In this document: one piece after another, positions 1,752 to 50,404 of the stretch
How positions within the stretch are numbered: position 1 is the stretch's first letter
How the letters are laid out: each line of letters starts with the position of its first letter
Source of the DNA: Candidatus Algichlamydia australiensis
GTDB lineage: Bacteria > Chlamydiota > Chlamydiia > Chlamydiales > JAJFMI01
Length of the DNA stretch: 64,000 nt
NCBI GenBank assembly: GCA_033977065.1
Contig: JAXCHI010000004.1
Span: 92,724-156,723 of the forward strand
Direction of reading: 5' to 3'
The notes under the pieces: model-generated
Databases searched by the model: none
What the model was told of the DNA's origin: nothing
Seen by the model: only the letters and a program-made list of their open reading frames with translations
Program-made: the position numbers and the translations under genes

Positions 1752-4328
1752 TTATTTTGCACGTAAAATAATAGAATTATTTTCTAAAACAAGCTCTATA
1801 GTTTCACCTGCTTTAGTCGTCTCATCAAGAATAGCAGATGCGAGAGTGTTGGTCACCTCTTTTTGAATGAGGCGTTTTAGAGGACGTGCACCAAATATGG
1901 GGTCGTATCCAGTTTTAGCGAGATAGGTAACGACATGTGGGTCCCAGGTAAGGCTAATATTGCGCTCGAGCGCACGTTCTTGTACTTTTTTTAATTGAAT
2001 GAGGACAATCCTCTCCATCTCACGCTCTTGTAGAGGGAGAAAGGGGAGAATTTCATCTAGGCGGTTGATGAACTCAGGACGAAAGTGGCTCTTGACTGTG
2101 GGTTCGACAACTTCTAAAACTTCTTCTTTTGCCCACTCATTAGGGTGCGAGCTGAGTTTTTCCAGCAGTTGTTCAGAGCCGAGGTTTGAGGTCATGATGA
2201 AGAGCGCATTTTTTGCATTGACTGTGCGGCCCTTGCTATCGGTAATGCGTCCATCATCAAAGAGCTGAAGCAAAATATTGAATATGTCCGGGTGCGCCTT
2301 TTCAACTTCATCTAAAAGGACAACTGAATAGGGGCGGCGGCGCAAGCTTTCAGTAAGTTGACCTCCCTCATCGTAGCCTACATATCCGGGAGGAGAACCA
2401 ATTAGTTTTGCAACAGTGTGGCGCTCCATATATTCGGACATATCGAGACGTACCATCGCCTCTTCTTGCGAAAAGAGCTGGCTTGCTAGCGCTTTGGCAA
2501 GTTCGGTTTTCCCAACGCCTGTGGGCCCTACAAAGAGAAAGACGCCCAAGGGACGTGTGGGATCGCTTAAGCCTGCGCGCGAGCGACGGATCGCTTCACT
2601 CACAGCTTGTATAGCAAAGGGCTGTCCGATCACGCGATCAGAGAGGCGCTCTTCTAAGTGAAGGAGCTTTTCCTTCTCTGTTTCGACCATGTTTTGCACA
2701 GGAATACCGGTCCATTTGGCCACAATTTGTGCAATGAGGGGTTCATCCACTTCTTCTTGCAAAAGGCGATCGGGTAGAGAAGAGAGGCGCCCTTGTGCCT
2801 CTTCAATAGCGCGCTCCATTTGAGGAATACGTGAATAGCGCAGCTCTGCAACGCGATTATAATCGAGGCTACGATTAGCTTCCTCTTCTTGGTGGCGCAG
2901 CTGTTCCAGAGAGTTTTTCTTCTCTTTTACGTCAGAAATGAGTCTCTTCTCCTGATTCCAGCGCTCTTTTAGCACGTCGAGCTCTTCTTTAAGGTGGGCA
3001 ATCTCTTTAGCACTCTTCTCATCTTCGCGGCCCTCTTTTTTCAGCCGCTCCTGCTTTACAATCAAGCTTGCAAGTTCACGCTCTTTAATATCGATCGGCA
3101 GAGGTCGTGAACCAATCTGTATGCGAATTAAGCTAGCTGCTTCATCTATCAAGTCGATCGCTTTATCAGGAAGTCGGCGATCACTGATATAGCGATGGGA
3201 GAGAAGCACAGCGCTATATAGGGCATCTTCAGTGATTTGGACGCCATGATAGATCTCATAGCGCTCTTTCAGTCCACGCAAAATCGCGACGGCATCTTCT
3301 AAACTTGGTTCGGCTACTGTGACCGGCTGAAAACGGCGCTCGAGCGCGGCATCGCGCTCAATGTATTTTTGGTACTCGCTGAGTGTTGTGGCACCAACAC
3401 AGTGAAGTGAACCGCGCGATAGAGCAGGCTTAAGCAGGTTCGCAGCATCCATTGCACCTTCTGTTGCACCTGCACCAACCAGCGTATGAATCTCATCAAT
3501 AAAAAGAAGGATCTGCCCCTCTGCGCGCTCAATTTCTTGTAAAATGGATTTAAGACGCTCTTCAAATTCCCCACGAAATTTTGTTCCCGCAATTAAGGCG
3601 CCCATATCAAGCGCAACAAGCTGTTTATTTTTGAGAGCATCAGGGATGTCGCCGCTGACAATGCGCAGAGCCAAGCCCTCAGCAATTGCAGTCTTTCCAA
3701 CTCCAGGATCACCGATTAGGAGGGGGTTGTTTTTTGTGCGACGAGATAAGACTTGCATCGTGCGACGAATCTCTTCATGGCGTCCAATAACAGGGTCGAG
3801 CTTTCCCGATTTAGCAAGTTCGGTAAGATCGCGGCAGTATTTCTTGAGAGCTTGCATGTTCCCCTCAGCGGAAGGGGAGCCAACGGCTTTGCCACCACGC
3901 ATTTCTTTAACTTTCTCTTCAATTTGCGAAAGAGGGGCACCAGATTTTTTCACCAGACTGGCAAAAGGTTCACCGCCCTGCTGCCAAAAGAGATAGAAGA
4001 GATGGTCAGAGCTAATATAGCGATCGCCCCACTTTTGGCAGAGTGCTTGCGCAGCACTGATCATCTTTTGTAATTTTGGGTTAATGTTGGGCTGGTCAGG
4101 AGTTCCACTAAAGGTTGGAAGCTTGCTTAAACTCTTATCAACTTGCTTTAAGAGTCCCGTGCTATCGAGCTGCAAACTCGAGAAAAGAGTCGTGAAATAT
4201 CCACTGGGATCTTGCAGTAGCGCGTGTAAAAGATGATTTTCTGTTACCTCAACGTGAGAGCGTGCGTGCGCTTCTGAAAATGCTGCCTCTAGGGCGGCTT
4301 GAGTAGCTTCTGTAAACTCTGGTTGCAT
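1752..4328 (-). CDS. clpB: ATP-dependent chaperone ClpB (class I AAA+ disaggregase)
   Basis: 858 aa with a Clp N domain and two Walker A sites (GDPGVGKTAIAEG and GPTGVGKTELAKAL). A long coiled-coil middle domain lies between the two AAA modules (KERELASLIVKQERLKKE...EELDVLKERWNQEK). Confidence 0.93.
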   Translation of the reverse strand: MQPEFTEATQAALEAAFSEAHARSHVEVTENHLLHALLQDPSGYFTTLFSSLQLDSTGLLKQVDKSLSKLPTFSGTPDQPNINPKLQKMISAAQALCQKWGDRYISSDHLFYLFWQQGGEPFASLVKKSGAPLSQIEEKVKEMRGGKAVGSPSAEGNMQALKKYCRDLTELAKSGKLDPVIGRHEEIRRTMQVLSRRTKNNPLLIGDPGVGKTAIAEGLALRIVSGDIPDALKNKQLVALDMGALIAGTKFRGEFEERLKSILQEIERAEGQILLFIDEIHTLVGAGATEGAMDAANLLKPALSRGSLHCVGATTLSEYQKYIERDAALERRFQPVTVAEPSLEDAVAILRGLKERYEIYHGVQITEDALYSAVLLSHRYISDRRLPDKAIDLIDEAASLIRIQIGSRPLPIDIKERELASLIVKQERLKKEGREDEKSAKEIAHLKEELDVLKERWNQEKRLISDVKEKKNSLEQLRHQEEEANRSLDYNRVAELRYSRIPQMERAIEEAQGRLSSLPDRLLQEEVDEPLIAQIVAKWTGIPVQNMVETEKEKLLHLEERLSDRVIGQPFAIQAVSEAIRRSRAGLSDPTRPLGVFLFVGPTGVGKTELAKALASQLFSQEEAMVRLDMSEYMERHTVAKLIGSPPGYVGYDEGGQLTESLRRRPYSVVLLDEVEKAHPDIFNILLQLFDDGRITDSKGRTVNAKNALFIMTSNLGSEQLLEKLSSHPNEWAKEEVLEVVEPTVKSHFRPEFINRLDEILPFLPLQEREMERIVLIQLKKVQERALERNISLTWDPHVVTYLAKTGYDPIFGARPLKRLIQKEVTNTLASAILDETTKAGETIELVLENNSIILRAK

Positions 4329-4787: not shown

Positions 4788-5711
4788 ATGACAATTTTAT
4801 TTGCTATACTTGCGATCGTTTTGGGGACTCTTCTTCTGCACTTTGGAGGAGAAAAACTCCTGCACTCTTCCATTGCTGTAGCGCGTGGTCTTGGTCTTTC
4901 CAATCTTGTTATTGGAATTTTTGTTGTTGCCGTCGCCACCTCTATGCCAGAAGTGCTCACAAGTGTCATCGCACAATTTAAGGGGATGCCAGGCGATATT
5001 GCAATGGGAAACGTACTCGGGTCAAATATTGCGAATATTGCTGTTGTGCTTGGGGTCTCTCTTCTAATCTCACCATGTAAACTTACAAAAGAGATCCGCT
5101 TTCGTGAAATGGCATTTATGACAGGTGCGCTTTTTCTTATTCTAGCCATTATGTGGATTGGGCCGATAACCTTTCGTCGCTCACTTCTTCTCTTTGCTGC
5201 TCTTATTGGTTACCTCGCCTTTCACGTAATTAAGGCAAAAAAAGAGCGCAAACCGCGCTGCCGGAAAACGCAATATCTTAAAGAGAGTCTTCTCATCCTC
5301 ATCGCCACAGTGCTCCTCTTTCTTGGTGCGCGTTTTCTGCTCTATGGTGCTGTAGAAATTGCTACCTGGTTTGGGATCTCTGCACGTGTGATCTCCCTTA
5401 CCCTGATTGCTATCGGCACTTCTCTACCGGAGCTGGCCACAGCAATTGCTGCCGCAAGGCGGAATGAAGAAGAAGTCGTTCTTGGCAACGTTATAGGAAG
5501 TAATATCTTTAATCCTTTGCTGATCCTGCCAGCGGCAGCCCTCGTCCACCCCATTGTATTTTCAAAAGAAATGTTTGTGCAAGACGCGCCCCTTGTCCTT
5601 GTCTTTACCTTGCTCCTCTGGGGAATGCTCGCTCTCTCAAAAAAGCTGACCCGTTACCACGGGATGGCCTTGCTTTTGGCCTATTTTCTCTATATTCTAT
5701 ACCTATATTGA
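4788..5711 (+). CDS. Ca2+/cation antiporter family protein (YrbG/CaCA type)
   Basis: 307 aa with two alpha-repeat signatures (GNVLGSNIANIAVVLG and GNVIGSNIFNPLLIL) in an internally duplicated 5+5 transmembrane layout. Confidence 0.85.
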   Translation: MTILFAILAIVLGTLLLHFGGEKLLHSSIAVARGLGLSNLVIGIFVVAVATSMPEVLTSVIAQFKGMPGDIAMGNVLGSNIANIAVVLGVSLLISPCKLTKEIRFREMAFMTGALFLILAIMWIGPITFRRSLLLFAALIGYLAFHVIKAKKERKPRCRKTQYLKESLLILIATVLLFLGARFLLYGAVEIATWFGISARVISLTLIAIGTSLPELATAIAAARRNEEEVVLGNVIGSNIFNPLLILPAAALVHPIVFSKEMFVQDAPLVLVFTLLLWGMLALSKKLTRYHGMALLLAYFLYILYLY

Positions 5712-7031: not shown

Positions 7032-7847
7032 ATGAATGTACCCAACAGAAGCCTATTAGGAATAGGAAAGCAATCTCGTAGATATCTGCAAAGAGTACTT
7101 GCTGTAAATGAAGGGGTTATTACTCCCAAAAGAGTCGCAGAAATATTAAATATTAAGATTTCGCGTGCAAACGTACTCCTTTCTTACTGGACATCTCGTG
7201 GGTGGCTACAGAGAATCCGTCAAGGCGCATATGTAGAGGTTTCACTGAGAGGAGCCTCAACAGATCGAGCGTTGGAAGATCCTTGGGTTATTGCAGAGCA
7301 ACTTTTTTCACCTTGTTTTATCACAGGCTTAACAGCTGCTCAATATTGGGATTTTACGGAACAAATTGTTGAAGTTGTAACGGTTTTTACTGAAATACCC
7401 ATACGTCACAGAAAACAAGAAATAGGGAAAGTGCGTTTTGTTTTTAAGCAAACTTCTCAAGAGAAAAGATTTGGATTAAAAAAGATTTGGCGTGATAATA
7501 TTCCGGTATATTTTGCAGATCCATCTCGAACATTAGTAGATCTGTTAGCAGATCCAGCACTTGGAGGAGGAATTGTGAGTGTAGAGGAAATTCTATTAGA
7601 ATATTGGAGGAGCGATCATTTGAACCGTGATCTTCTCCTAAATTATGTAAAAAAATACAACAATAAAACAATATTCAAGCGCCTTGGTTTTTTACTTGAA
7701 AAAAATCAATTTGAAGAAGAAAATTTTTTGAAGACATGTCGTGAAAACATAAGCAAGGGATATTCTCAGCTCGATCCGTCGATAAAAGGAAGCCGACTAT
7801 CAAAAAGGTGGGGCCTGTGGTACCCGGAAAAATATAATATAAAATGA
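7032..7847 (+). CDS. type IV toxin-antitoxin system AbiEi-family antitoxin / transcriptional regulator
   Basis: 271 aa. The N-terminal winged-helix-like segment (GVITPKRVAEILNISRANVLLSYWTSRGWLQRIRQGAY) is typical of AbiEi. It sits immediately upstream (1-nt gap) of an AbiEii-type nucleotidyltransferase gene. Confidence 0.7.
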   Translation: MNVPNRSLLGIGKQSRRYLQRVLAVNEGVITPKRVAEILNIKISRANVLLSYWTSRGWLQRIRQGAYVEVSLRGASTDRALEDPWVIAEQLFSPCFITGLTAAQYWDFTEQIVEVVTVFTEIPIRHRKQEIGKVRFVFKQTSQEKRFGLKKIWRDNIPVYFADPSRTLVDLLADPALGGGIVSVEEILLEYWRSDHLNRDLLLNYVKKYNNKTIFKRLGFLLEKNQFEEENFLKTCRENISKGYSQLDPSIKGSRLSKRWGLWYPEKYNIK

Positions 7848-7848
7848 A

Positions 7849-8685
7849 ATGATTTTAAAAGAAGAGATTTTGGTGCAGGCTGATGAGCACAATCTTTTTC
7901 CTACTACCATTGAAAAAGATTATGTCCTCAGTTGGGTATTATGGGGTATTTTTCTACATCCGTTGCTTTCTTCAAAACTTGTTTTCAAGGGCGGAACTTG
8001 TTTAAAAAAATGTTTTTTTGGCTCATATAGATTTTCGGAAGATCTTGACTTTACTCTTACAAAGCCCACAACACTGATCGAGTTAGAAAAAAGCTTTCAA
8101 GAGGTTTGTGAATGGGTTCAAGAGAACTCACGGATTATGTTTTTTCAGAAAAAGCAAAAATTTGAGGAATACAAAACACCTCGTGGTAACTTAGCATTTC
8201 AGGGGAGACTGCGTTATCAAGGGCCATTAAAACATAAAACAAGTTTCCCTAAAATCAAACTTGATATTACTGCTCATGAAATTCTTGTTGAGAAACCTTC
8301 TTTGTGTAAAGTCCTTCATCATTATTCCGATAGCTGCAAAGAAGAGGTGCAAATTGCTACCTATTCATTTGAAGAAGTTTTTGCGGAAAAAATCCGAGCG
8401 CTCATTCAAAGGTCGCGCCCACGCGATCTCTATGATGTTATCCACTTAAATAATCAACAAATACATGCTTATAATAAAGCTTTGGTGCGTGATATTTTGC
8501 TGAAAAAATGTAATTTTGCAAAAGTTCCTTACCCAGAAATAGAAAAGCTACTAAACAGACAAAATAAAGAATTTGTGGCGACGGGCTGGAGCAACATGTT
8601 AGCGCATCAGATTTCTGGACTTGAGCCTGTGGAGCATTATTGGAAGCAGCTTCCTGAGGTATTTTCTTGGATCCAGCAGGTTTAA
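7849..8685 (+). CDS. AbiEii/AbiGii-family nucleotidyltransferase toxin (DUF1814)
   Basis: 278 aa with the family signature KDYVLSWVLWGI...LVFKGGTCLKKCF...YRFSEDLDFT and the later FAEKIRALIQRSRPRDLYD motif. Confidence 0.85.
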   Translation: MILKEEILVQADEHNLFPTTIEKDYVLSWVLWGIFLHPLLSSKLVFKGGTCLKKCFFGSYRFSEDLDFTLTKPTTLIELEKSFQEVCEWVQENSRIMFFQKKQKFEEYKTPRGNLAFQGRLRYQGPLKHKTSFPKIKLDITAHEILVEKPSLCKVLHHYSDSCKEEVQIATYSFEEVFAEKIRALIQRSRPRDLYDVIHLNNQQIHAYNKALVRDILLKKCNFAKVPYPEIEKLLNRQNKEFVATGWSNMLAHQISGLEPVEHYWKQLPEVFSWIQQV

Positions 8686-39284: not shown

Positions 39285-40148
39285 TCAACTAGGAGTCTCG
39301 TTGAAGGGGAGCGAGTTCGCTTCGCAGAACAGCCTTGCAAACTTTGAACCCTCCGATGCTTTTGCTTGTATCTGTTTTACAAGTTCGTTGGGAAGCTTTC
39401 TCCACTCATTCATCTCAAGTTCTTCAAGATGTTCCCATTTCGCATCCAAAATTTCGTTTGGGAAAGTGCCTTTAAATGGGTTACCGGATAATTTTAACTC
39501 TTTTAAATTTATGAGGTGAGCTAGAACAGCGGGTAAGCTTCTAAGTTGATTGTCTGATAAGTCAAGCTTCCTAAGATTTTGAAGGGAAGCGATTTCAACG
39601 GGTAGTTCACTGATTCTATTATCTGCCAAGTTTAATTCGGCTAGATTGGCGAGCTGACCTATTCCTGCTGGGATTACTTTGATCAAATCACGTGTAAATT
39701 GAATTTTAGTTACATCGGTATGTTTTTCAATTTCTGGAGGGAATGATCCAATAAAAAATGGATGCCTATTGTGAATATTTTCTTGATGTGACGCTAGTTG
39801 TTTTCTAACTTTTTCTCTTCCATCGCCATCTGGACGCTTACGATACCCATGTTTATTAAAACGTATTTCGGATGAAGCTCCTTGTACCCAGTCTTGCATA
39901 TTTGCATAGAGAGGCTCCTTAGGCTCCTCAACTGGAGCCGACTTTGAGCATATTTTCCAGAGGAAAAAGCCTACTAAGCTCAATCCAATAAGAGTTGTAG
40001 AGACTTTATGGCGCCATAAGAAAGAGCCGGTTTGCGAAACGCACTCCCCGAAAAAATCACAGAGAGGGGCTGCATCAATATCCAAACGAGGAGTGATCCC
40101 TCTTGAAGAAAATTCTAAAACTGGCTTGACTCCTATATCTGACATCAT
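39285..40148 (-). CDS. membrane-anchored leucine-rich-repeat protein
   Basis: 287 aa with an N-terminal transmembrane helix (TTLIGLSLVGFFLWKI). At least four canonical LRRs are present (IGQLANLAELNLADNRISELPVEIASLQNLRKLDLSDNQLRSLPAVLAHLINLKELKLSGNPF). Confidence 0.8.
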   Translation of the reverse strand: MMSDIGVKPVLEFSSRGITPRLDIDAAPLCDFFGECVSQTGSFLWRHKVSTTLIGLSLVGFFLWKICSKSAPVEEPKEPLYANMQDWVQGASSEIRFNKHGYRKRPDGDGREKVRKQLASHQENIHNRHPFFIGSFPPEIEKHTDVTKIQFTRDLIKVIPAGIGQLANLAELNLADNRISELPVEIASLQNLRKLDLSDNQLRSLPAVLAHLINLKELKLSGNPFKGTFPNEILDAKWEHLEELEMNEWRKLPNELVKQIQAKASEGSKFARLFCEANSLPFNETPS

Positions 40149-40230: not shown

Positions 40231-42360
40231 TTAATTGAGTTGGATGCGGCCGAGGGGCTGGATCCGGATCTCGGGGACAATCTCTTGAGAAGAGAGGACG
40301 GGGAGATCGGGAAACTCTCCTTCAATGAGCTTGCGCGCAAAACGTCGTACGTCGATAGCGGTGAGGAGGACAGGGGGCTGGCCGCCGGGTGGAGTCGGGA
40401 CGATGATTTCACGCATCGCTTTAATGATGAGTTGAATGGAGTCGGGATCGAGGGCTAGGTAGGAGCCGCCTGAGGTCTGTTTGACGGCACCGCGAATCAT
40501 ATCTTCGATTTCGGGGTCAATCAAGTAGACGGAGAGGGTGGATTGTCCTTGTGAGTATTTGTAGCTGACGTAGCGCTTGAGGGAGGAGCGGACATATTCG
40601 GTGAGGAGGACGGTATCTTTCTCTGTTTGCGCCCACTCTGAAAGGGCTTCCAGAATAGTACGTAGATCTTTTATGGAAATCTCTTCTTGTATCAGGCGGC
40701 GCAGGATTTCGGTCATTTTTTGAAGAGGAACAAGTCGTGTTACTTCTTTGACAAGATCGGGATAGGACTTTTCTACAAATTCTAAGATGGCGCGTGCTTC
40801 TTGGATTCCTAAAAATTCTTGTGCGTGTTTTTTGTAGAAGTGAGAGAGATGGAGTATGAGGACTTCGCTTGTATTCCAATATTTAATGGATGCTTTTTTA
40901 AGGATCGATTCGTACCTGTTTTCAACCCACAAAGAGGCGTTGCCAACGGCATTTTTGGAGGTTGTGTAGGGGAGATTGTAGCGGCGGAGGACTTCTTCTG
41001 TCTCGTTTGTGAGAAGCATATTTTCCAAGACTTTACCGCGCACGATTGGGACTTCGTTAAGGTGGATAGAGTACTCGCTTTCTTCTAAACTTGGGGAGTC
41101 TGTGCGTACGTGGACACCGGGAAAGCGAACGCCTAAATCTTGGTAGAGAGCGTGGCGCATCTTCGGAATCATCTCTTCGATAAATGTGGAACCGCCTTTG
41201 CGATCGCGGCGCATCGCTTCAGAGAGACTCTTGCCAACTTCTAAGATAACGGGAAGGGTAAGGGCGTAGTCATCTTCTCCTCCGCGGACGACAGCATGAC
41301 CTTCTACGTCAGTTTCAACGGTCGCACCGGTTGCAGCGGCGCGCTTTTCCGTTTTACGCATCTTCCACCAGATCGAAAGGCTTGCGCCTCCTACAGCAAA
41401 ACCTAGAACAAGAAAGAGGAGTGTGGGGAACCCTGGGATGAACCCAATGGCAATGATGACAAGGGAGGCGATGATGACGCCTTTAGGTTGAGCAAAAAGT
41501 TGTGTTGATAGGTCGCGGCCAAGATTGGCATCTTTAGTGTCACTTGAGACGCGTGTAGTCACAAGACCGGCAGTCAGAGCGACGATAAGGGATGGAATTT
41601 GAGAGACGAGGCCCCCACCAATGGAGAGGAGAGCATATGTTTGTGCGGCTTGCATCGCTGTCATACCGTGGAAGACAATTCCAATGATGAGCCCTCCAAC
41701 GATGTTGATGATGGCAATTACGATACCGGCAATCACGTCCCCTTTGACGAATTTCATGGCACCATCCATCGCTCCGTAGAGCTGGCTCTCTTTTGCAAGA
41801 GCAAGTCGCAGAGTACGCGCCTGGTTGGCATCGAGAATCCCACTACGCATGTCGGCGTCGATACTCATCTGCTTTCCTGGCATCGCATCCAAGGTAAAAC
41901 GGGCCGCAACTTCAGCAACACGTTCAGCACCCTTTGTGACAACAATAAATTGCACAATGGTGATGATGAGGAAGATAACGCCTCCGACAACAAAGTTGCC
42001 TCCGACTACAACGCGACCGACGGCCATAATGACTTCACCGGCGTAGGCGTGTAGGAGAATTTGTCTTGTTGCGGCGATCTCAATACTCAACCGAAAGAGG
42101 GTGGTAAGGAGGAGAAGAGAGGGGAAGATGGAGATGTGAACAGCTTTTTGAATGTAGAGACCGACCATCAAAAGGCCGATTGAGACAGTTAAGTTGATGG
42201 CGATCATCGCATCGATCACAGGAGGGGGCACAGGAAGAACAATTGCCATGATGATGGTCACAACAAATAAAGCGAGAATGATGTCGGGTGAGCGACTCAA
42301 AAAGCGCAAGACTCCTTCGCGCCCTAAAACTCTTCCTAAACTATCTACAAAATTCTTCAT
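40231..42360 (-). CDS. sctV: T3SS export gate protein SctV (CdsV/LcrD)
   Basis: 709 aa with FHIPEP-family motifs (FPSLLLLTTLFRLSIEIAATR, VVTKGAERVAEVAARFTLDAMPGKQMSIDAD). Confidence 0.95.
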   Translation of the reverse strand: MKNFVDSLGRVLGREGVLRFLSRSPDIILALFVVTIIMAIVLPVPPPVIDAMIAINLTVSIGLLMVGLYIQKAVHISIFPSLLLLTTLFRLSIEIAATRQILLHAYAGEVIMAVGRVVVGGNFVVGGVIFLIITIVQFIVVTKGAERVAEVAARFTLDAMPGKQMSIDADMRSGILDANQARTLRLALAKESQLYGAMDGAMKFVKGDVIAGIVIAIINIVGGLIIGIVFHGMTAMQAAQTYALLSIGGGLVSQIPSLIVALTAGLVTTRVSSDTKDANLGRDLSTQLFAQPKGVIIASLVIIAIGFIPGFPTLLFLVLGFAVGGASLSIWWKMRKTEKRAAATGATVETDVEGHAVVRGGEDDYALTLPVILEVGKSLSEAMRRDRKGGSTFIEEMIPKMRHALYQDLGVRFPGVHVRTDSPSLEESEYSIHLNEVPIVRGKVLENMLLTNETEEVLRRYNLPYTTSKNAVGNASLWVENRYESILKKASIKYWNTSEVLILHLSHFYKKHAQEFLGIQEARAILEFVEKSYPDLVKEVTRLVPLQKMTEILRRLIQEEISIKDLRTILEALSEWAQTEKDTVLLTEYVRSSLKRYVSYKYSQGQSTLSVYLIDPEIEDMIRGAVKQTSGGSYLALDPDSIQLIIKAMREIIVPTPPGGQPPVLLTAIDVRRFARKLIEGEFPDLPVLSSQEIVPEIRIQPLGRIQLN

Positions 42361-43439
42361 TCTTCGCTTTTAAAAATATCTAACTCTGCTTCTTCTGCAC
42401 GCTCTAGTGAAGCGACCCATTTCAAGATCTCTGCCACTGTCTTGTAGGTGTCATAAGGGATGTATGCACCAATTTTTCCATTGTCCCACAGATCGTGTGC
42501 CAAAGGCACGTTTCGCATAATGGGCACGTCATGCTGCTGCGCACGGCGGATGATCTCACTCGCCTCACGCCCTTGCCCCATCGTAGCAATTTTTGGAGCG
42601 GGCTCCTCCACCTCATCATACTCCAGTGCGATGGCAAGGTGAACGGGGTTTGTCACAACAACTTTTGATCGCGATACAGCAGCAGGTCCTTCCTGGTAGG
42701 CGAGTTCTTGTGAACGTTGGCGCCGCTTGCTCTTGATCTCTGGGTTTCCCTCAGTATCCTTCATTTCCTGTTTGACCTCAAACTTTTCCATCATCATCTG
42801 CTTTGCAAATTGTCTTTTTTGGAAGACAAGGTCAAAAATCGCGATGGCAATAAAGAAAATCCCTACGCGTAGGGCGACTTTGGTCAAAAACTTAGAGAAG
42901 ACAAGCGCGCTGCCCACAACAGGGAGTGACGCGGTTGTTACAATCTCATCTGTACTATCTTTCACTACATAGTAAATGATAATAACAGCTCCGGTAATTT
43001 TAATAATCGATTTTAGCAGCTCAACAAAAGTTTTGAGCTTAAACATATTTTTTAAATTCTCGACGGGATTCATCCGCTTGATGTCTGGCTTCATCGCCTC
43101 CATAGAGAAGACCGGCCCAACAACAAGAAAACCCACAATGATGCCAATTCCAGCAATAATTGCCATGAAGGGGAATGAAGTACTAAAGATTAGATTGATT
43201 GCCGACATCATGATACGGCCCGCTTCATTCGCAATATCACCGTGTTCCTTGATGGAGTTAAAGGTGTTGGTCATAAAGCCGGCAAGTTGATCAAAAAAGT
43301 AGCCCGCCAAAATGACAATCCCTGACATGGAGGCAACGAAAGTAAATGCGGAAGGGAAGTCTTGTGACTTTGCAACCTGCCCCTTTTTTCGGGCATCGCG
43401 CAACTTCTTAGAGGTTGCCTTTTCCGACTTTTCTGCCAT
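42357..43439 (-). CDS. sctU: T3SS export switch protein SctU (CdsU/YscU)
   Basis: 360 aa with an N-terminus typical of the family (EKSEKATSKKLRDARKKGQVAKSQD), four transmembrane helices, and the autocleavage-site region reading VVVTNPVHLAIAL. 4-nt overlap with sctV. Confidence 0.95.
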   Translation of the reverse strand: MAEKSEKATSKKLRDARKKGQVAKSQDFPSAFTFVASMSGIVILAGYFFDQLAGFMTNTFNSIKEHGDIANEAGRIMMSAINLIFSTSFPFMAIIAGIGIIVGFLVVGPVFSMEAMKPDIKRMNPVENLKNMFKLKTFVELLKSIIKITGAVIIIYYVVKDSTDEIVTTASLPVVGSALVFSKFLTKVALRVGIFFIAIAIFDLVFQKRQFAKQMMMEKFEVKQEMKDTEGNPEIKSKRRQRSQELAYQEGPAAVSRSKVVVTNPVHLAIALEYDEVEEPAPKIATMGQGREASEIIRRAQQHDVPIMRNVPLAHDLWDNGKIGAYIPYDTYKTVAEILKWVASLERAEEAELDIFKSEE

Positions 43440-43456: not shown

Positions 43457-44563
43457 TTAATTGTGAAAGAAGAGAAGCACATCGCCATCATCGACGATGT
43501 AGTCGCGTCCTTCAGAGCGCATTTTTCCCGCTTCTTTGACAGCTGCGCGCGACCCAAGTTCTTTTAAAACAGGAACGCTAATCACCTCTGCACGTATAAA
43601 TCCTTTTTCAATATCGCTATGGATTTCTCCAGCAGCAGACTTTGCGTTGGTCCCTTGGCGAATGGTCCAAGCGCGTGTCTCTTGCGGACCTGTTGTAAAG
43701 TAGGTAATGAGCCCCAACTTTTTAAAACACAATGAGACAAGGCGCTTTAGCCCCGACTCTTTCAAGCCGACACTCTCCAAAAATTCTTTTGCCTCTTCAT
43801 CATTTAGGGTGCCGAGTTCTTCTTCAAACTTTGAACAAATAGAGATAACTTCACTGCCCGTTTTTTTCGCATGCTCGCGCACTTTCTGTACGTACTCATT
43901 TTCCATTGATGGGAGCGAGCCCTCATCGACATTGGTGGCGTAGATCACATCCTTCAATGTCAAAAATGGATAGATTTTAAGGATCTCTTTTTCATCACTA
44001 CTCAGATCGAGCTCACGCATCGATTTGCCCTCATCCAGATGAGTGGCGCAGCGCTTGAGTAGCGCAACTGTTGGCAATAATTCGCGGTTTCCTTTCGCCT
44101 GCTTTTCTAACTTGACCAAAGAGTTTTGGCACATTTGCAAGTCAGCAAGAGCGAGCTCTAGTTCAATAATTTCTATGTCAGCAATTGGATCGATTTTGCC
44201 GCGTACATGAACTACATCGGGATCTTCAAAGCAGCGCACAACATGCAAAATAACATTTGTCTCGCGGATATTTGCTAAAAATTTATTCCCCAAGCCTTCG
44301 CCTTTTGACGCGCCTTCGACAAGGCCGGCAATATCAAAAAAGACGCAATGAGCGGGGATCATCTTTGCACTGTTACTCAATTTTGCAAGCAAATCAAGTC
44401 GATCATCGCTCACTTCTACAACGCCCTTGTTGGGATCAATTGTGCAAAAGGGATAATTTGAAGCTGCCGCACCTTTTTTGGTGAGCGCGTTAAAGAGGGT
44501 AGACTTTCCTACATTGGGAAGACCTACGATACCAATAGAGAGTTCAGACATACCCTCTATCAT
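43457..44563 (-). CDS. ychF: ribosome-binding ATPase YchF
   Basis: 368 aa with a G1 motif ([18 protein letters not shown]) and [22 protein letters not shown]. The C-terminal TGS-like part is present. Confidence 0.95.
44276..44563. repeat. copy A (inside intact ychF) of a direct duplication of the ychF 5' region
   Basis: 44276-44416 aligns to 45303-45443 at roughly 90 percent identity by eye. 44511-44563 aligns to 45445-45499. About 93 nt of copy A has no counterpart in copy B. Confidence 0.85.
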
Positions 44564-44647
44564 ACTGGAAATGAGCCATTTTTAGACAGAATGCAATTTA
44601 ATAGTTGACTCTATTTGCGGTCTATCCTACTATGTAGTACAATTATC

Positions 44648-44998
44648 ATGAAAAGGGAAGTAGTTGAGACAAAGATATTTTCGGAGATCTTGGATAAGCT
44701 CGTAAGAACTGGAAAACTGGATCGTAACGACTTTGATGACTTGTTGAGAATAATCATTACAAATCCTGACGAAGGAGATGTAATGCGTGGAACAGGTGGG
44801 TTAAGAAAAATTCGCTTGAAGGGAGTATCAAAAGGAAAAAGTGGAGGTTTTCGCATCTGTTACCTTGATGTTCCCAAAAATGAAAAAATCTATTTAATAG
44901 TAATATTTCCCAAAAATGTTCAAGAAAACTTGGACAAAGAGGAGATAAAAATATTAAAAAAACTAGTTGAAAGACTAAAGAAGGAAAAAAATGAGTGA
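44648..44998 (+). CDS. type II toxin, RelE/HigB-like (DUF1044-type) mRNA interferase candidate
   Basis: About 116 aa from the ATG at 44648 (the track start at 44615 is a TTG). The motif GDVMRGTGGLRKIRLKGVSKGKSGGFRICYLDVPKNEKIYLIVIFPKN is typical of this toxin family. 8-nt overlap with the antitoxin gene. Confidence 0.7.
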   Translation: MKREVVETKIFSEILDKLVRTGKLDRNDFDDLLRIIITNPDEGDVMRGTGGLRKIRLKGVSKGKSGGFRICYLDVPKNEKIYLIVIFPKNVQENLDKEEIKILKKLVERLKKEKNE

Positions 44999-45305
44999 GT
45001 TCTTTAAAGGAATAAAGCAAGGTCTTGAGGAAGCAGTTGAGTTTGAAGAAAAGAAGAGAACTCTTAGAACGAAAAAAATTGAAATTCCAAAGCCTCCGAA
45101 AAAATACAAAGCTAAAGATATCAAAAGAATTAGAGCTAAAGAAAATTATTCCCAAGCTATTTTTGCAAAAGTTCTTAATGTTAGTGTAAAAACTATTCAG
45201 GCGTGGGAATCAGGAGAAAGAACTCCTAGTCAAGTTGCTATGCGGTTATTACAAATTATTGACGACGGTATTTATACGCCTGAAGTTTTTAAAGAAGCAT
45301 GTTAA
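44991..45305 (+). CDS. Xre-family helix-turn-helix antitoxin
   Basis: 104 aa with a C-terminal HTH (IKRIRAKENYSQAIFAKVLNVSVKTIQAWESGERTPSQVAMRLLQII), as in the partners of RelE/HigB-like toxins. Confidence 0.75.
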   Translation: MSEFFKGIKQGLEEAVEFEEKKRTLRTKKIEIPKPPKKYKAKDIKRIRAKENYSQAIFAKVLNVSVKTIQAWESGERTPSQVAMRLLQIIDDGIYTPEVFKEAC

Positions 45306-45499
45306 AAATTTATTTCCCAAGCCTTCGCCTTTTGACGCGTCTTCGACAAGGCCGGCAATATCAAAAAAGACGCAACGGGCGGAGATCATCTTTGCGCTAT
45401 TACTCAATTTTGCAAGCAATTCGAGTCGATCATCGCTGACTTCCCCACGTTGGGAAGGCCTACGATACCAATAGAGAGTTCGGACATACCCTCCATCGT
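45303..45499 (-). pseudogene. ychF 5' fragment (copy B), internally deleted and frameshifted
   Basis: It encodes [16 protein letters not shown] in one frame and [38 protein letters not shown] in another. These correspond to YchF residues about 1-16 and about 48-96. The track ORF at 45249..45560 is a chimeric reading of this remnant. Confidence 0.85.
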
Positions 45500-45652
45500 A
45501 ATCGGTTTTATCTATTTTTGGAAGAAAAGAGGTGGGATCTAAATGAAATGTTTCTTTCATTTTGAATTAAGTTTTTACAGATAGCCCTAAATATACCGAT
45601 CTGTTAACCTTCTTAGCAAAAGTAGTTAAATTTTATTTTAAGTAGGCGGGAA

Positions 45653-48600
45653 ATGGCAGCAATAGGTTCTAATACAAGTTTTGAATGGCTAGTGGGATCA
45701 AAAGGATTTGACCTCCTTAGAGAAGCTAGAGGTGCACCTCCTGATGCACCTTTTGAAACAGTTTTAAATCGGCATGAAATTAAATGGTTGAGTAGAGAAA
45801 GTCATCCGTTTTTAAGTGATATTAGAAATGAATTTACTAGAATTAGGGAGATTGTTTTAAAGCAGCTGGACTGGGATAAACCTTGGGGTTTAGATGTCTC
45901 ATTTCAGGAGTTTGGAAAAGATGTAGAGATAATCGACGCCTCAGTCGTAGGTCTTTCTAAAGGTAAGAATCTATTTATTGGCCGAGCAATGGAAGAAAGT
46001 AGGGAGAGAGCATTGCATCTAATCGAGTTAGGTTTGGATCTTTCAGCGGCTACCCCCGAGCAACAAGCTGATAGAGCTTTTGTTTTGCATGCTGTAAAAG
46101 TAAATGGACGCAATTTGGGTTGTGTACAGTGGGCATGCGATGATGAAGAGATCGTATCTACTGCAATGCAAGATTATCCTAACTCTTTTAAAGATGCAAG
46201 CGAACGAATACGTAACAAGCGAGAATTTACAATAGAATGGTTACGTAAATGTGGCTATGTCAATACGTCAAAAGTTGTTATATGGTTTGATGATCTAGAT
46301 TTTATTATGGCATATGCGAGACATTCTGACATCTACTGGCGGAGGCCTCGTGACAAGGAAAGTGCTGAATGGAAACTTTGGAAATACATTAAAAATTGTG
46401 ACGATAAGGAGGTAATAAAAAAAATAGTTCAAGTCAATGGAAAATTTCTCTCCATTGTAAGAAAAAAATTTCGGGATGAAGAAGAAGTTGTGGTAAATGC
46501 TATTAAAAATGACAGGGACGCATTTAAATATGCGAGCAAACGATTGCAAAATAAGGACAGTGTTTTATCAGTGTATGGGCGTGGGAGAATTTATGCTTCT
46601 TATTCGGAGGCAAAGCGTATAAAAGCTGCTTCAGACAATGAACTTTTACGATCCTTGTTGGCTGAGGGTTTTCTTTTAACTGATATACCCGATCGGGCGA
46701 TTGCGGAAATTCAACCTGAACTTGTGATAGAAGCTTTGTCACTAAATAAAGAAAATATCCGTATCCTTGATGAGAGGGATGGCCAACAGGGAAATGCACA
46801 TCCAAAATGGATCTCCTGGATAGATAAAAATAAAAATCATAAAGAATTGATTATTGCTTTAGTAGGCTTAAGAGGAACTGCGATTGGATTGGCAGATATT
46901 CAGTTCCAAAAGAATGAAGAAATTGGCTTAATAGCAATAAAAAACGATGAGGCAGCTTTTAGATGTCTTGACGACAGTTTGCAACGGAACAGGTCTTTTG
47001 CAATAAAAGCTTTAACTGTTAATCACAAAGTATACGCGTTTCTTCCTAAGTTTTATCAGATCGATGCAGAACTGTTAGCTTTAGCAATAGAAGAAAAAGG
47101 TTATAAATGTTCCATAGAAATTGAGAGTTTTAAAAATAAAAAAGCCTGTGCGTTGTATCTCAATTCTGATTTATCTAATACCAAAAATGATTATGAACGT
47201 TTTCATGAAAGGTTTCAACGGATGAGTTTCGAGATGAGGAATGATCAAGAAGTTCGTTACGCAGCAGCTAAACATTGTAAGGAAGTTTTTCTTGACATGC
47301 TTGAGGATTTTCGAAGAAGAAGAGAAGAACTTTTTTCAAACCTGATTCAAGATAGCGAAAGAGAAAGGGTTGCAGGTGCAGGGCTCCAGGAAGAATTGGA
47401 TGAAGCTGTAAATAGTCTGGAAAAAAAGTTAACAGGCAAGAATGAGATTTTTTTTGAGGAACTTTCAAAGGTTTGGGAGTTAACAGATGGGCTTTCTGAT
47501 CTACCAGATTATGATCACTTTGCTCAGGAAAATGAAAGGATAATTGCAGATCTAGAGGAAATAAAGGCAAAAACTCTTGAAGAGTTGAATGATGTGCAAG
47601 GTCAACTCGAGGAGATGGAAGGGAATCTTATAGGGGGTGTTGTATCTAATGAGGCGCAAATTGAAACCCTTAAAGTTTCTCAGGAACAACTTAGAGCTCA
47701 AATTCAACCATTGGAATCTGAGTTAAAAAGTCGTATTGAATTAAGAAACCGCTGTGAAGAACTTTTTAAAAAAGATGACTCTAGAGGAATATATAAAATT
47801 TTTTATCGCCATTTTTTTCAAAAATTAACAGCACTAAGTATTGGTTTACAGGCAGCTAAAAGTGGACTGTTGCAGAGGGCAAACACTTCAACAGATGATG
47901 TTCTAGGGGTTTTGATCACTGTAATGACTTCTTTAATAACTACCGGAACTGGCATTGTGTTGGCTCCTGTTACTTGGGGTGCTTCGACAATAATTGCTCC
48001 TTTTATTGGTATTGGAGTCAACTTTGTTGCTCAGAAGGCTGTAGGTGCTGTGCGAGGAAAACAGAAGAAAGCGGAGTTTAAAAGAGGGGCAAGCCATTTT
48101 CATGGGGGATTGGAGGGAGTCGATTTAGATAATAAGAGACTCGCATTTGAAATTACTTTTTTACTACAGGAACATCTTCGTCTCTGCTCAATAAAAGGTG
48201 TAAAAAAGATTGCCGACGATTGGTTTTCTAAGTTTGCCCATTCTTTAGTTCAAAAAAGTAGCAAGGGTGAGGAGAGTGCAAAATTTTCCAGTATAATGTT
48301 GAAGCTGAAAAAAGGAAAAAAAGATATTGAGACGATATACGATTTAAATTGGAACTCTGAGAGTCTATTTCTTGAATCGGGTGTATCTTATCCTGATGCT
48401 GACGGGAAAAGAATTTATGAATCTTTTGGTTACAAAAAAGATGGCGTGTTTAAGGAAAAAAGCAGAGCTTCAAAATATGGATATCTCTCTTTTCCAAATC
48501 AAGAAGAGGCTAATTGCTATAAAGAGGAGAGGGTTGCTCAACTCAAGAAAAAGGATAGCAAGAAAGAAGGAATTTGGAAGAGAGACCTAAGAAGAAAAGG

Positions 48601-48847
48601 GATTGCTACTGAAGTTTTGGATCAATTAGGCTCTCGGGCTGGTGTTAGTAAACTCGCAATTCAAAATGCAAGTGGGCTCCAGGAGATAGGGGTGCAAGTC
48701 GAGTCGAATCAGCAAACAAATACGATTAGAATTGAAGGTCTTGCAAGAGAGGTTGAAAGATTAAATCAGCAAGTGAGTGAATTGTTTAAAATGAACAGAG
48801 CTCTTTTAGCAAGACTTGAAGCTGTAAGCGGTAAGAAGGATTCGTGA
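45653..48847 (+). CDS. large repeat protein: DUF4116-like repeats, coiled coil, bilobed hydrophobic domain (Inc-like/effector candidate)
   Basis: 1064 aa. Repeats fit the DUF4116 pattern (RDEEEVVVNAIKNDRDAFKYASKRLQNKDSVL; QKNEEIGLIAIKNDEAAFRCLDDSLQRNRSFAIKAL; DDEEIVSTAMQDYPNSFKDASERIRNKREF). A coiled coil spans approx residues 560-700. It is followed by VLGVLITVMTSLITTGTGIVLAPVTWGASTIIAPFIGIGVNFVA. Confidence 0.75.
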   Translation: MAAIGSNTSFEWLVGSKGFDLLREARGAPPDAPFETVLNRHEIKWLSRESHPFLSDIRNEFTRIREIVLKQLDWDKPWGLDVSFQEFGKDVEIIDASVVGLSKGKNLFIGRAMEESRERALHLIELGLDLSAATPEQQADRAFVLHAVKVNGRNLGCVQWACDDEEIVSTAMQDYPNSFKDASERIRNKREFTIEWLRKCGYVNTSKVVIWFDDLDFIMAYARHSDIYWRRPRDKESAEWKLWKYIKNCDDKEVIKKIVQVNGKFLSIVRKKFRDEEEVVVNAIKNDRDAFKYASKRLQNKDSVLSVYGRGRIYASYSEAKRIKAASDNELLRSLLAEGFLLTDIPDRAIAEIQPELVIEALSLNKENIRILDERDGQQGNAHPKWISWIDKNKNHKELIIALVGLRGTAIGLADIQFQKNEEIGLIAIKNDEAAFRCLDDSLQRNRSFAIKALTVNHKVYAFLPKFYQIDAELLALAIEEKGYKCSIEIESFKNKKACALYLNSDLSNTKNDYERFHERFQRMSFEMRNDQEVRYAAAKHCKEVFLDMLEDFRRRREELFSNLIQDSERERVAGAGLQEELDEAVNSLEKKLTGKNEIFFEELSKVWELTDGLSDLPDYDHFAQENERIIADLEEIKAKTLEELNDVQGQLEEMEGNLIGGVVSNEAQIETLKVSQEQLRAQIQPLESELKSRIELRNRCEELFKKDDSRGIYKIFYRHFFQKLTALSIGLQAAKSGLLQRANTSTDDVLGVLITVMTSLITTGTGIVLAPVTWGASTIIAPFIGIGVNFVAQKAVGAVRGKQKKAEFKRGASHFHGGLEGVDLDNKRLAFEITFLLQEHLRLCSIKGVKKIADDWFSKFAHSLVQKSSKGEESAKFSSIMLKLKKGKKDIETIYDLNWNSESLFLESGVSYPDADGKRIYESFGYKKDGVFKEKSRASKYGYLSFPNQEEANCYKEERVAQLKKKDSKKEGIWKRDLRRKGIATEVLDQLGSRAGVSKLAIQNASGLQEIGVQVESNQQTNTIRIEGLAREVERLNQQVSELFKMNRALLARLEAVSGKKDS

Positions 48848-48870
48848 TTTTTTTTTAGGCAAAGGCTGGT

Positions 48871-49380
48871 TTAGTTAAATTTTTCTTCTCTCAAACGTCT
48901 TGAAGAGAGAGGCCTTCCATCAACTAAAAACTTCTCTATGTAATGTGGAGTGAAGTGAAGTTGCTCGCTAAAAATTCTAATGTTTTCTTCATTTCCCTGA
49001 GCATCTTTTCCAAATGCTGCACCTTTTCCAAGTACGAGGTGGTTGAAAGGGCAGTGGTGGTAGATTTTTTGTAAAAACTCTTTATAGGTGAGGGTGGCAA
49101 TTTCTTTGTTGAAGGGAAGAAGAAGCACTAGATCGACGCCAGCTTGTTCAAGAAGGGTGAGTTTTTCTTCGAGAGTTGTGAGTTGGGGAATATTAAGTTC
49201 AGGACGAAAGTAATTGATAGGGAGAGTTTCAAACGTGGTGACAAGGCGGGTAGGAGCAAGAGTTGCCATTTGTGAGAATAGATATTTGTGGCCAGCATGC
49301 ACACCATCAAAAGAGCCGATGGTGAGGGCTACTGGATCGCTACTTCTTTGTAATGTAGAGAAATCTCTGGCGATTTGCAT
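48871..49380 (-). CDS. ribF: FMN adenylyltransferase (FAD synthetase) domain protein; RibF lacking the riboflavin kinase domain
   Basis: The motifs ALTIGSFDGVHAGHKYL and a C-terminal ...GRPLSSRRLRE (the ISSTxIR-like motif) are present, and the ORF stops directly afterwards. The start is uncertain (Met21 at 49380 chosen, overlapping truB by about 50 nt). Confidence 0.7.
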   Translation of the reverse strand: MQIARDFSTLQRSSDPVALTIGSFDGVHAGHKYLFSQMATLAPTRLVTTFETLPINYFRPELNIPQLTTLEEKLTLLEQAGVDLVLLLPFNKEIATLTYKEFLQKIYHHCPFNHLVLGKGAAFGKDAQGNEENIRIFSEQLHFTPHYIEKFLVDGRPLSSRRLREEKFN

Positions 49381-50048
49381 GTGTGTAGGTGGCTTTGGTA
49401 TTGAAAACCGGGTTTTTGTATCTCTTCGATGCTCAGGCAATTTTCTAACAAAAAGCTGCCACTCTTAACACGCTCTAATTGGACAAGGTGGGCATAGGAG
49501 CCAAGTTTTTTACCAATATCTACGGCTAATTGACGGATGTAGGTACCCTTACTGCAAGCAAAATGTAGCTTAAGGTGAGGGTAGTCGTAAGAAAGAAAAG
49601 TGGTCGTAACTTGGATTTTTTTTGGCTCGCGCTCAATTGTGACACCTTTACGAGCGAGCTCGTAAAGTTTTTTTCCTCCTACTTTTTTTGCGGAATACAT
49701 CGGTGGAGTTTGAAGAAGCTCACCTTGGAATTCAGGAAGGAGTGCTAAAATTTCTTCATTTGTAGGAATTTTTTCAGAGGTGTTTGTAGTGGCGCCTTCT
49801 AAATCACCTGTATCTGTTTCTATACCAAGCTTTAGTGTGGCGGTGTACTCTTTGTCACTATTAAGGAATGTCGGCTGGAGTCGTGTATAGTTTTTGCCAA
49901 TAAGCATGACCATTACGCCAGTTGCAAAGGGATCAAGGGTGCCTGCATGGCCGATTTTTTTGATTTTTGTGAGACGACGTAGCAGCGAGACCAGATAGAA
50001 AGAGGTTTTTCCGGCAGGTTTGTTAAGAAGAAGAATACCCTCTTTCAC
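49329..50048 (-). CDS. truB: tRNA pseudouridine(55) synthase TruB
   Basis: The motifs GILLLNKPAGKTSF and KIGHAGTLDPFATGVMVMLIG are present. Confidence 0.9.
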   Translation of the reverse strand: MKEGILLLNKPAGKTSFYLVSLLRRLTKIKKIGHAGTLDPFATGVMVMLIGKNYTRLQPTFLNSDKEYTATLKLGIETDTGDLEGATTNTSEKIPTNEEILALLPEFQGELLQTPPMYSAKKVGGKKLYELARKGVTIEREPKKIQVTTTFLSYDYPHLKLHFACSKGTYIRQLAVDIGKKLGSYAHLVQLERVKSGSFLLENCLSIEEIQKPGFQYQSHLHTCKSPEISLHYKEVAIQ

Positions 50049-50404
50049 TGACGAGCCTCTCGCTCTTTTTCTAGATCACCTAGGATGTTGTCGATATGGA
50101 GCAGATCGTCTGTGCTGGTATCAAGATGAAAGGTAAGTTCGGGGAAAAAACGCATAACAACTTTTTTTGATGTTGAGATCGCGATGAAGCTGGCTGCTGA
50201 ATTGAGTCCGTTAATTGTTTCACTCCGCTCTTTTTCGTCTCCTAAGATGCTCACATAGATTTTAGCATGACGCAGATCTTTAGTAATTGAAACGCTCATG
50301 ACAGTAGTGAATTTAGCGATTTTAGGATTGCGAACTTCGTTGCGAATCACTTCGCTAATGACCTCTTTCAAAAGTGAGTTGAGTCTCTCTGTTCTGCGTG
50401 TCAT
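50045..50404 (-). CDS. rbfA: ribosome-binding factor A
   Basis: 119 aa with an RbfA-type N-terminus (RTERLNSLLKEVISEVIRNEVRNPKI) and VSITKDLRHAKIYVS. Confidence 0.9.
   Translation of the reverse strand: MTRRTERLNSLLKEVISEVIRNEVRNPKIAKFTTVMSVSITKDLRHAKIYVSILGDEKERSETINGLNSAASFIAISTSKKVVMRFFPELTFHLDTSTDDLLHIDNILGDLEKEREARQ

Follow-up and report, generated by a model that had tools for sequence, protein, structure and literature searches.

A HigBA2-type toxin–antitoxin operon between an intact and a displaced ychF 5' end in a chlamydial symbiont of a coral alga

The DNA analyzed here, called the window throughout, is a stretch of 64 kb from a metagenome-assembled genome, that of Candidatus Algichlamydia australiensis. 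This member of the Simkaniaceae is a symbiont of Cladocopium, a dinoflagellate and coral alga. The genome itself has been described (PMC11317633). Within the window, a two-gene toxin–antitoxin (TA) operon of the HigBA2 type was found between two copies of the 5' end of ychF, the gene of a redox-regulated ATPase. The layout is old upstream DNA, a truncated 5' copy, the insert and then the full gene. Thus, one complete ychF stands beside one displaced and decaying 5' fragment, which is the layout of an insertion scar, as had been proposed in an original prediction made from the sequence of the window. An insertion that rebuilt ychF fits this architecture and is still the best reading, whereas the part of the proposal that described a mobile cassette with its own promoter for ychF found no support. 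Our preferred reading, held tentatively, is that the TA operon and an allelic ychF 5' segment were acquired together from a related chlamydia by homology-anchored recombination, with no recombinase involved.

The recurrence of the ychF 5' segment was recovered by pairwise alignment as well as by a repeat finder (Table 1). Two blocks match between the copies. Positions 44273/44276–44416 correspond to 45300/45303–45443 at 92% identity, and 44502–~44564 corresponds to 45438–~45500. The copies are identical at 183 of the 200 aligned nucleotides (nt), that is 91.5%, with 17 mismatches and a longest exact run of 35 nt. They lie 1,027 bp apart, and this unit is made up of the TA operon and the ychF 5' segment. 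Every repeated 20-mer of the window falls in the ychF repeat, which is the sole long repeat in it besides the internal S1-domain repeats of rpsA. As expected from the original prediction, the alignment placed the start of the repeat on the antitoxin stop codon (TAA, 45303–45305). Outside of the repeat the flanks are unrelated, and similarity was no higher than for shuffled sequence on both sides. The internal deletion and the frameshift proposed for the second copy are both present, albeit the deletion measures 91 nt and not about 93. Since 91 is not a multiple of three, the reading frame is shifted. A tandem ychF paralogue was considered and rejected.

The locus was also compared with an independent short-read assembly of the same sample. 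Two Logan contigs matched at 100% identity. One of them, L001, equals window positions 44319–45370, the other, L093, equals 45346–50347 and ties copy 2 to its upstream DNA. Both junctions and the deleted copy were reproduced in these contigs and are therefore real sequence. L001 and L093 both stop exactly in a shared 35-mer, as expected of a de Bruijn graph, and the phasing through this 35-mer comes from the long-read assembly alone. An artefact of the assembly or of the population would have to consist of a single ychF with the deleted 5' end, with the 1,027-bp unit present on a circle of its own or in tandem. As both contigs end in the shared 35-mer, the copies cannot be phased by short reads alone, and the long-read coverage of the genome was just 10x (PMC11317633). 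On the other side, the published contig was built from long reads, which easily span 1 kb, and was subsequently polished (PMC11317633). Moreover, under such an artefact a frameshifted ychF would be the only one in the genome, and the 1-kb circle would lack any replication function. We regard it as exceedingly improbable. The YchF protein of the window and the one recorded at NCBI for Ca. Algichlamydia australiensis (364 amino acids, MSELS...) are 100% identical.

The predicted two-gene TA module was confirmed between the copies, with both open reading frames intact. The operon is compact, with the toxin gene first and an overlap of 8 nt between the genes, an arrangement also found in homologous loci. 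Comparison with the PDB matched residues 7–113 of the toxin to HigB-2 (5JA8/5JA9/8A0X; E=1.5e-14, 57 bits) and residues 4–91 of the antitoxin to HigA-2 (5J9I/5JAA; E=8e-8, 36 bits). Matches of the antitoxin to the NadS/MqsA families stayed under the cut-off (NadS model, 57.2 bits versus a cut-off of 60). The antitoxin is full length, since its length and its C-terminal end are as in the homologues. At 33%, the GC content of the cassette lies below that of ychF and sctU (45%) and below that of the window (41.6%). The cassette is a true TA module, foreign in its composition. Its predicted promoter block, TTGAC...CCTACTATGTAGTACAAT, is conserved in the homologous TA loci L084 and L087, and the likeness begins at the -35 box; promoter and operator functions are assigned to this block on the grounds of sequence. 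The short spacer in front of it (44565–44604) showed no likeness to the ychF upstream regions of relatives or to other TA loci. With a full-length antitoxin whose stop codon forms the first triplet of the repeat, the insert is a minimal promoter-to-stop TA unit, preceded by a spacer of about 40 nt. An Rfam search of positions 44000–46000 gave no match.

The module is a further member of the HigBA2 family. The HigB2/HigA2 pair of V. cholerae resides in a superintegron, as a cassette that has an attC site. The two systems are alike in their full-length matches (5JA8, 5JAA, 8A0X), the toxin-first operon, the PF06296 toxin and the antitoxin with an Xre-type helix-turn-helix (HTH) domain. In contrast to the V. 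cholerae pair, the relation here is distant (57 and 36 bits), attC and an integron integrase are absent, and the antitoxin stop codon abuts ychF. An integron gene cassette was rejected on this basis: the stop codon runs straight into ychF sequence, there is no attC and the window holds no integrase. Likewise, a transposon, an insertion sequence or a miniature inverted-repeat element was rejected, because flanking inverted repeats and a transposase were absent and a duplication of 290 bp is beyond those made by transposases.

The differences between the two copies were then analyzed for selection. There are 14 securely aligned coding differences, 10 of them synonymous and 4 non-synonymous, and 13 are transitions. 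Glycine 80 is invariant in 120/120 YchF sequences and proline 66 is found in 109/120. Judged by this conservation, the changes G80D and P66S in copy 2 are predicted to be disabling and to represent decay after displacement. Relative to the outgroups, copy 1 has only synonymous derived changes, and copy 2 holds the disabling ones. Models were compared with the actual codons, and the transition bias was varied over a range. Decay of one copy alone under neutrality was rejected (P<=0.003). For an in-situ duplication in which the pseudogene is neutral and the intact copy is selected, P was ~0.01–0.07. Divergence with both copies under purifying selection fitted the data. The substitution pattern thus fits two alleles that would have diverged while both were functional, and the synonymous excess favours a 5' end imported from a related lineage.

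Chlamydial relatives were examined as well. The nearest YchF relatives, L082 and L083, have 88% and 80% identity, respectively, and both carry ychF-sctU without a TA module. Relatives keep the order ribF-ychF-sctU-sctV, with no TA genes there. Those at 69–88% YchF identity lack the insert, at a distance too great for this to be informative. In those at 69%, ribF ends 2–4 nt before ychF. In more distant chlamydiae, the gap between ribF and ychF ranges from 0.25 to 4.8 kb and is filled by unrelated non-mobile genes. The order ychF-sctU-sctV is the same in all chlamydial relatives examined. The block as a whole is conserved, with a variable spot in the interval upstream of ychF, where the size and the content of the gap differ among chlamydiae.

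Nucleotide identity to the outgroups was 150/188 for copy 1 versus 144/188 for copy 2 with L082, and 138/188 versus 138/188 with L083. The upstream DNA of L082 and L083 had no similarity above shuffled controls to the DNA upstream of either copy. At 88% and 80%, these relatives are too distant for upstream DNA and outgroups to polarise the copies. A recombination breakpoint in ychF was sought by sliding identity and by GC content at third codon positions, and only the usual conservation of the G domain was observed. A remnant of the ribF 3' end was sought beside either copy and none was found. A contig scan with YchF returned, among the matches listed, relatives of at most 62% identity only. 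Exact look-ups of the 368- and 364-residue forms of YchF in public assemblies gave no match, because public short-read assemblies break at the repeat.

The layout alone is a common product of element integration, of a Campbell-type crossover, of homology-anchored illegitimate recombination and of in-situ insertion-duplication. We favour, with reservation, acquisition without a recombinase, since the unit is minimal, the join falls on the stop codon in A/T-rich microhomology and neither a recombinase nor element ends were seen. The junction reads TG(C/T) and continues across the join with TAAAAATTT. Several points weigh against this reading. Only 14 substitutions speak for two alleles, and set against the in-situ model this support is marginal. 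A donor, an empty site in a close relative and a second occurrence of the cassette were sought, and none was found. An earlier event in the donor is needed, one that placed the TA unit about 15 nt upstream of the ychF start codon. In addition, the junction lies directly after the ultra-conserved stretch coding for GEGLGNKFL, the type of site used by site-specific integrases.

This last point leads to a model in line with the original prediction, a site-specific island that had a replacement ychF 5' end in its attP and would have integrated at the GNKFL-coding site, which is conserved. Both borders indeed carry a direct repeat of the target-gene end, one copy of which completes the gene, and such a repeat with mostly synonymous divergence is typical for these elements; the left boundary also falls within an invariant stretch of ychF. 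The locus has a record as an attachment site in other phyla: ychF or its upstream region is reported to serve as such for a pneumococcal prophage (PMC8637289) and for pipolins with large serine recombinases (PMC11551731). A homologous TA locus, L084 (3467–5700), further has its toxin gene, 58% identical in product, and its partner directly next to a tyrosine integrase. There, the TA pair and the integrase stand between two primase/helicase-type modules (AAA_25; DUF3987 with a DnaG zinc ribbon), which suggests tandem integrative elements with the TA pair at their border, and neither a tRNA gene nor an att-like repeat was found in the 10 kb examined. However, Pfam scans of essentially all open reading frames of at least 90 codons revealed no integrase, transposase or resolvase in the window, as predicted, and none in the 1,027-bp unit. 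Integrase and cargo would have to have been deleted later, with the addictive TA pair at the island end surviving, and this deletion must have spared just about 40 nt and the exact promoter-to-stop TA unit. A promoter for the rebuilt gene was not detectable in the 84-nt spacer, and no related element with a ychF fragment was found. We consider this reading, an island that integrated and was later reduced to the TA pair, credible but unlikely.

A one-step insertion-duplication in situ would do with fewer events. Here, a 740-bp TA fragment would have been captured at ychF by template switching or staggered-break repair and 290 bp of resident sequence duplicated around it, so that both copies are native and the differences arose later. 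One event would account for both junctions, and no donor with a prior linkage of TA genes and ychF is required. Microhomology events at the locus are indicated by the junction at the antitoxin stop (TAAAAA) and by the later 91-nt deletion. The distribution of changes, with only synonymous ones derived in copy 1 and the disabling ones in copy 2, is what this model predicts. Their number is not: synonymous and third-position differences are 3–6 times above the prediction from the non-synonymous rate of the pseudogene, a mild misfit already given (P ~0.01–0.07). To our knowledge, long target duplications with filler DNA are rare in bacteria. An in-situ origin is in our view rather improbable.

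A self-mobile cassette, as originally proposed, found no support: the cassette has neither terminal inverted repeats nor attC, a recombinase was absent from the 64 kb and no second copy was found. A different form of mobility would need no recombinase. The 1,027-bp unit could consist of the TA genes and a captured 290-bp ychF handle, excise as a circle between the repeats and re-enter the chromosomes of related chlamydiae by a single crossover in ychF, made by the RecA of the host. If this were true, the cassette would always rebuild ychF, as the handle has the ribosome-binding site and the start codon, and it would then be kept by TA addiction. As a by-product, transcription of ychF-sctU-sctV would pass through the TA operon in antisense, so that the type III export genes would be coupled to TA expression. 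We hold this to be very unlikely.

Under the preferred reading, that is import by recombination, the HigBA2-type operon would have entered the chromosome in physical linkage with a 5' segment of ychF (~ -15 to +276), an allele that stemmed from a related chlamydial donor. Host recombination, and not a dedicated recombinase, would have joined this segment to the resident ychF. The route may have been a homologous anchor within ychF together with an illegitimate join at the A/T-rich microhomology near the antitoxin stop (TAAAAA); a single Campbell-type crossover of a circular intermediate would be equivalent. The incoming 5' end would now complete ychF. The resident 5' end, with the old upstream region attached, would have been pushed 1,027 bp away and be in decay, as seen from the 91-nt deletion at microhomologies and from the changes G80D and P66S. 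The TA pair presumably acts like HigBA2, with the toxin as a ribosome-dependent mRNA endonuclease that is neutralised by the HTH antitoxin, and the antitoxin presumably represses the TA promoter via the TACTA-TG-TAGTA palindrome. Addiction would penalise loss of the insert through recombination between the repeats. A crossover in the longer left segment of the repeat would also carry the 91-nt deletion into ychF.

Two groups of known events resemble this locus. The elements e14 and phage 21 in icd, SXT/R391 in the 5' end of prfC and the dusA-specific islands carry a replacement end of their target gene. They share with the present locus the direct repeat of a gene end, one intact copy, a displaced non-functional copy and mainly synonymous differences. 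Unlike in these elements, there is no integrase here, the whole unit is 1,027 bp (the TA pair and 40 nt), no independent occurrences are known and a promoter of the rebuilt gene was not seen. Homology-facilitated illegitimate recombination was invoked for the displacement of type VI secretion effector-immunity genes in V. cholerae, where parts of resident genes are displaced (PMC5361080). As in this process or in insertion-duplication by a single crossover, with Acinetobacter, S. pneumoniae and P. stutzeri as examples, foreign DNA would here have been joined via a conserved flanking gene on one side and a candidate microhomology on the other, parts of the resident gene are displaced and not deleted, and a recombinase gene is unnecessary. 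We know of no demonstration of homology-facilitated illegitimate recombination in environmental chlamydiae.

The insertion may also have changed the transcription of ychF. The original prediction had included an own promoter for the rebuilt gene. In a simple consensus scan, of a kind by which chlamydial promoters are poorly predicted, no sigma-70-like site was found on the ychF strand in the 84-nt gap between the toxin gene and ychF (44564–44650). The only nearby promoter-like sites on this strand are consensus matches at 45619–45590 and 45659–45630, upstream of copy 2. No terminator-like site was detected between these candidates (45590–45659) and ychF. Since the spacer showed no promoter and no terminator-like site intervenes, ychF, and probably sctU and sctV, may depend on the old promoter, with transcription that runs through copy 2 and crosses the TA operon in antisense. 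The mechanical open reading frame of ychF reaches 44563, and the annotated protein begins at the ATG at 44551, with a GAGGG ribosome-binding site in front. This ATG is probably the true start. In the same direction, sctU and sctV are probably co-transcribed with ychF.

Table 1. Coordinates of the features at the ychF locus, given as positions of the window
Feature	Position	Strand	Evidence and remarks
sctV, type III secretion export apparatus	40231–42360	-	Pfam FHIPEP; after sctU
sctU, type III secretion export apparatus	42357–43439	-	Pfam Bac_export_2; 17 nt downstream of ychF
ychF, redox-regulated ATPase, intact, 364 amino acids	43457–44551	-	TIGR00092 E=4e-141; Pfam MMR_HSR1 and YchF-GTPase_C
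Repeat copy 1	44276–44564	-	276 nt of ychF coding sequence and ~12–15 nt of leader with GAGGG ribosome-binding site; inside the functional gene
Spacer between ychF leader and TA promoter	44565–44604	.	~40 nt, 32% GC
Predicted TA promoter and putative operator	44605–44647	+	TTGACT-17 nt-TACTAT; palindrome TACTA-TG-TAGTA (TACTATGTAGTA); TACAAT right before the toxin ATG
Toxin, HigB2-like (RelE/ParE superfamily, PF06296), 116 amino acids	44648–44998	+	Pfam 33.5 bits versus cut-off 27
Antitoxin, HigA2-like Xre HTH, 104 amino acids	44991–45305	+	HTH_3 35.6 bits versus cut-off 23
Repeat copy 2, displaced ychF 5' fragment, pseudogene	45303–45500	-	91-nt frameshifting deletion; G80D and P66S, predicted disabling
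Deletion junction in copy 2, GACTTC	45438–45443	.	Loss of copy-1 positions ~44411–44501 between ACTT(C/T) microhomologies
Region upstream of the displaced copy and also of the divergent DUF4116 gene	45501–45652	-	Consensus promoter matches

Homologues of the TA pair were followed in other sequences. The toxin family is frequent on plasmids, with 634 PLSDB records, among them a Neochlamydia plasmid, and the closest toxin homologues are at most 60% identical. A ychF fragment was looked for near homologous TA modules elsewhere and none was found. Neither the window nor 15 billion public proteins contained a second copy of the cassette, and the exact TA proteins were seen only in the reads of this organism. 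DNA downstream of other antitoxins was similar to the ychF junction at chance level. This includes L087, a Rhabdochlamydiaceae genome with the TA homologue as a stand-alone pair, whose cassette likewise ends in TAAAAA and whose downstream similarity to the junction is that of chance. The L087 pair is flanked by an imperfect, A/T-rich direct repeat of 18 nt, at 4932–4949 (AAAATTCTAAAATTTTAA) and 5641–5658 (AAAATGAAAAAATTTTAA). The second copy of it ends on the antitoxin stop codon and echoes the junction in the window; the repeat may be due to chance. L088, a JGI metagenome contig (2160–5385), offers a second case in which a member of this TA subfamily stands between the copies of a duplicated host segment. 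There, a 60%-identical TA homologue lies between two tandem copies of one gene, each of about 1.1 kb, 89% identical and comprising a 270–277-codon gene of unknown kind plus its promoter. The contig also has an inverted repeat of 70 nt (3260–3328 and 5385–5316). The two copies could be simple tandem paralogues.

Around the locus, the order rpsA-nusA-infB-rbfA-truB-ribF ... ychF-sctU-sctV-copN-scc is the conserved chlamydial order. Between ribF and the displaced ychF fragment, a DUF4116 gene was found on the plus strand (45653–48847), encoding 1,064 residues with three DUF4116 repeats at a GC content of 37.6%. It is likely another lineage-specific insertion at the ribF-ychF spot, as ribF and ychF are only 2–4 nt apart in the relatives with 69% YchF identity. 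Within the conserved type III secretion block, a gene for a leucine-rich-repeat protein lies between copN and sctV on the minus strand (39285–40148) and may encode a lineage-specific effector.

Two further systems were observed in the window. A type VI secretion-like cluster extends over 10017–31268 and 1752–4328. Its components include IglE_N, a DUF4280/PAAR-like protein, a 1,341-residue ankyrin-repeat protein, DotU/TssL, TssF, gp25/TssE, TssK, TssC/VipB and TssB/VipA, and a ClpB/ClpV-like ATPase is encoded nearby. The genome paper mentions neither 'type VI' nor 'T6SS' (PMC11317633), and a literature search found no report of a chlamydial type VI secretion system. A second TA pair, of another type, is located on the plus strand at 7032–8685, with an AbiEi-like antitoxin (a weak match) and, after it, an AbiEii nucleotidyltransferase toxin (E=4e-39).

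In summary, the footprint at ychF is a known kind of insertion scar, and a tidy, textbook-style one, rather than a new kind of system. The insert puts 1 kb antisense to the TA operon between the old upstream region and ychF with, probably, sctU and sctV; this may matter for the regulation of these genes. If the proposed import is correct, a selfish TA module can be fixed beside a core operon without a recombinase of its own. If one of the ychF 5' ends is truly foreign, the locus would record, with a date and at base resolution, an exchange of DNA between related environmental chlamydiae, and its value lies mainly in such evidence of recombination-mediated gene flow.

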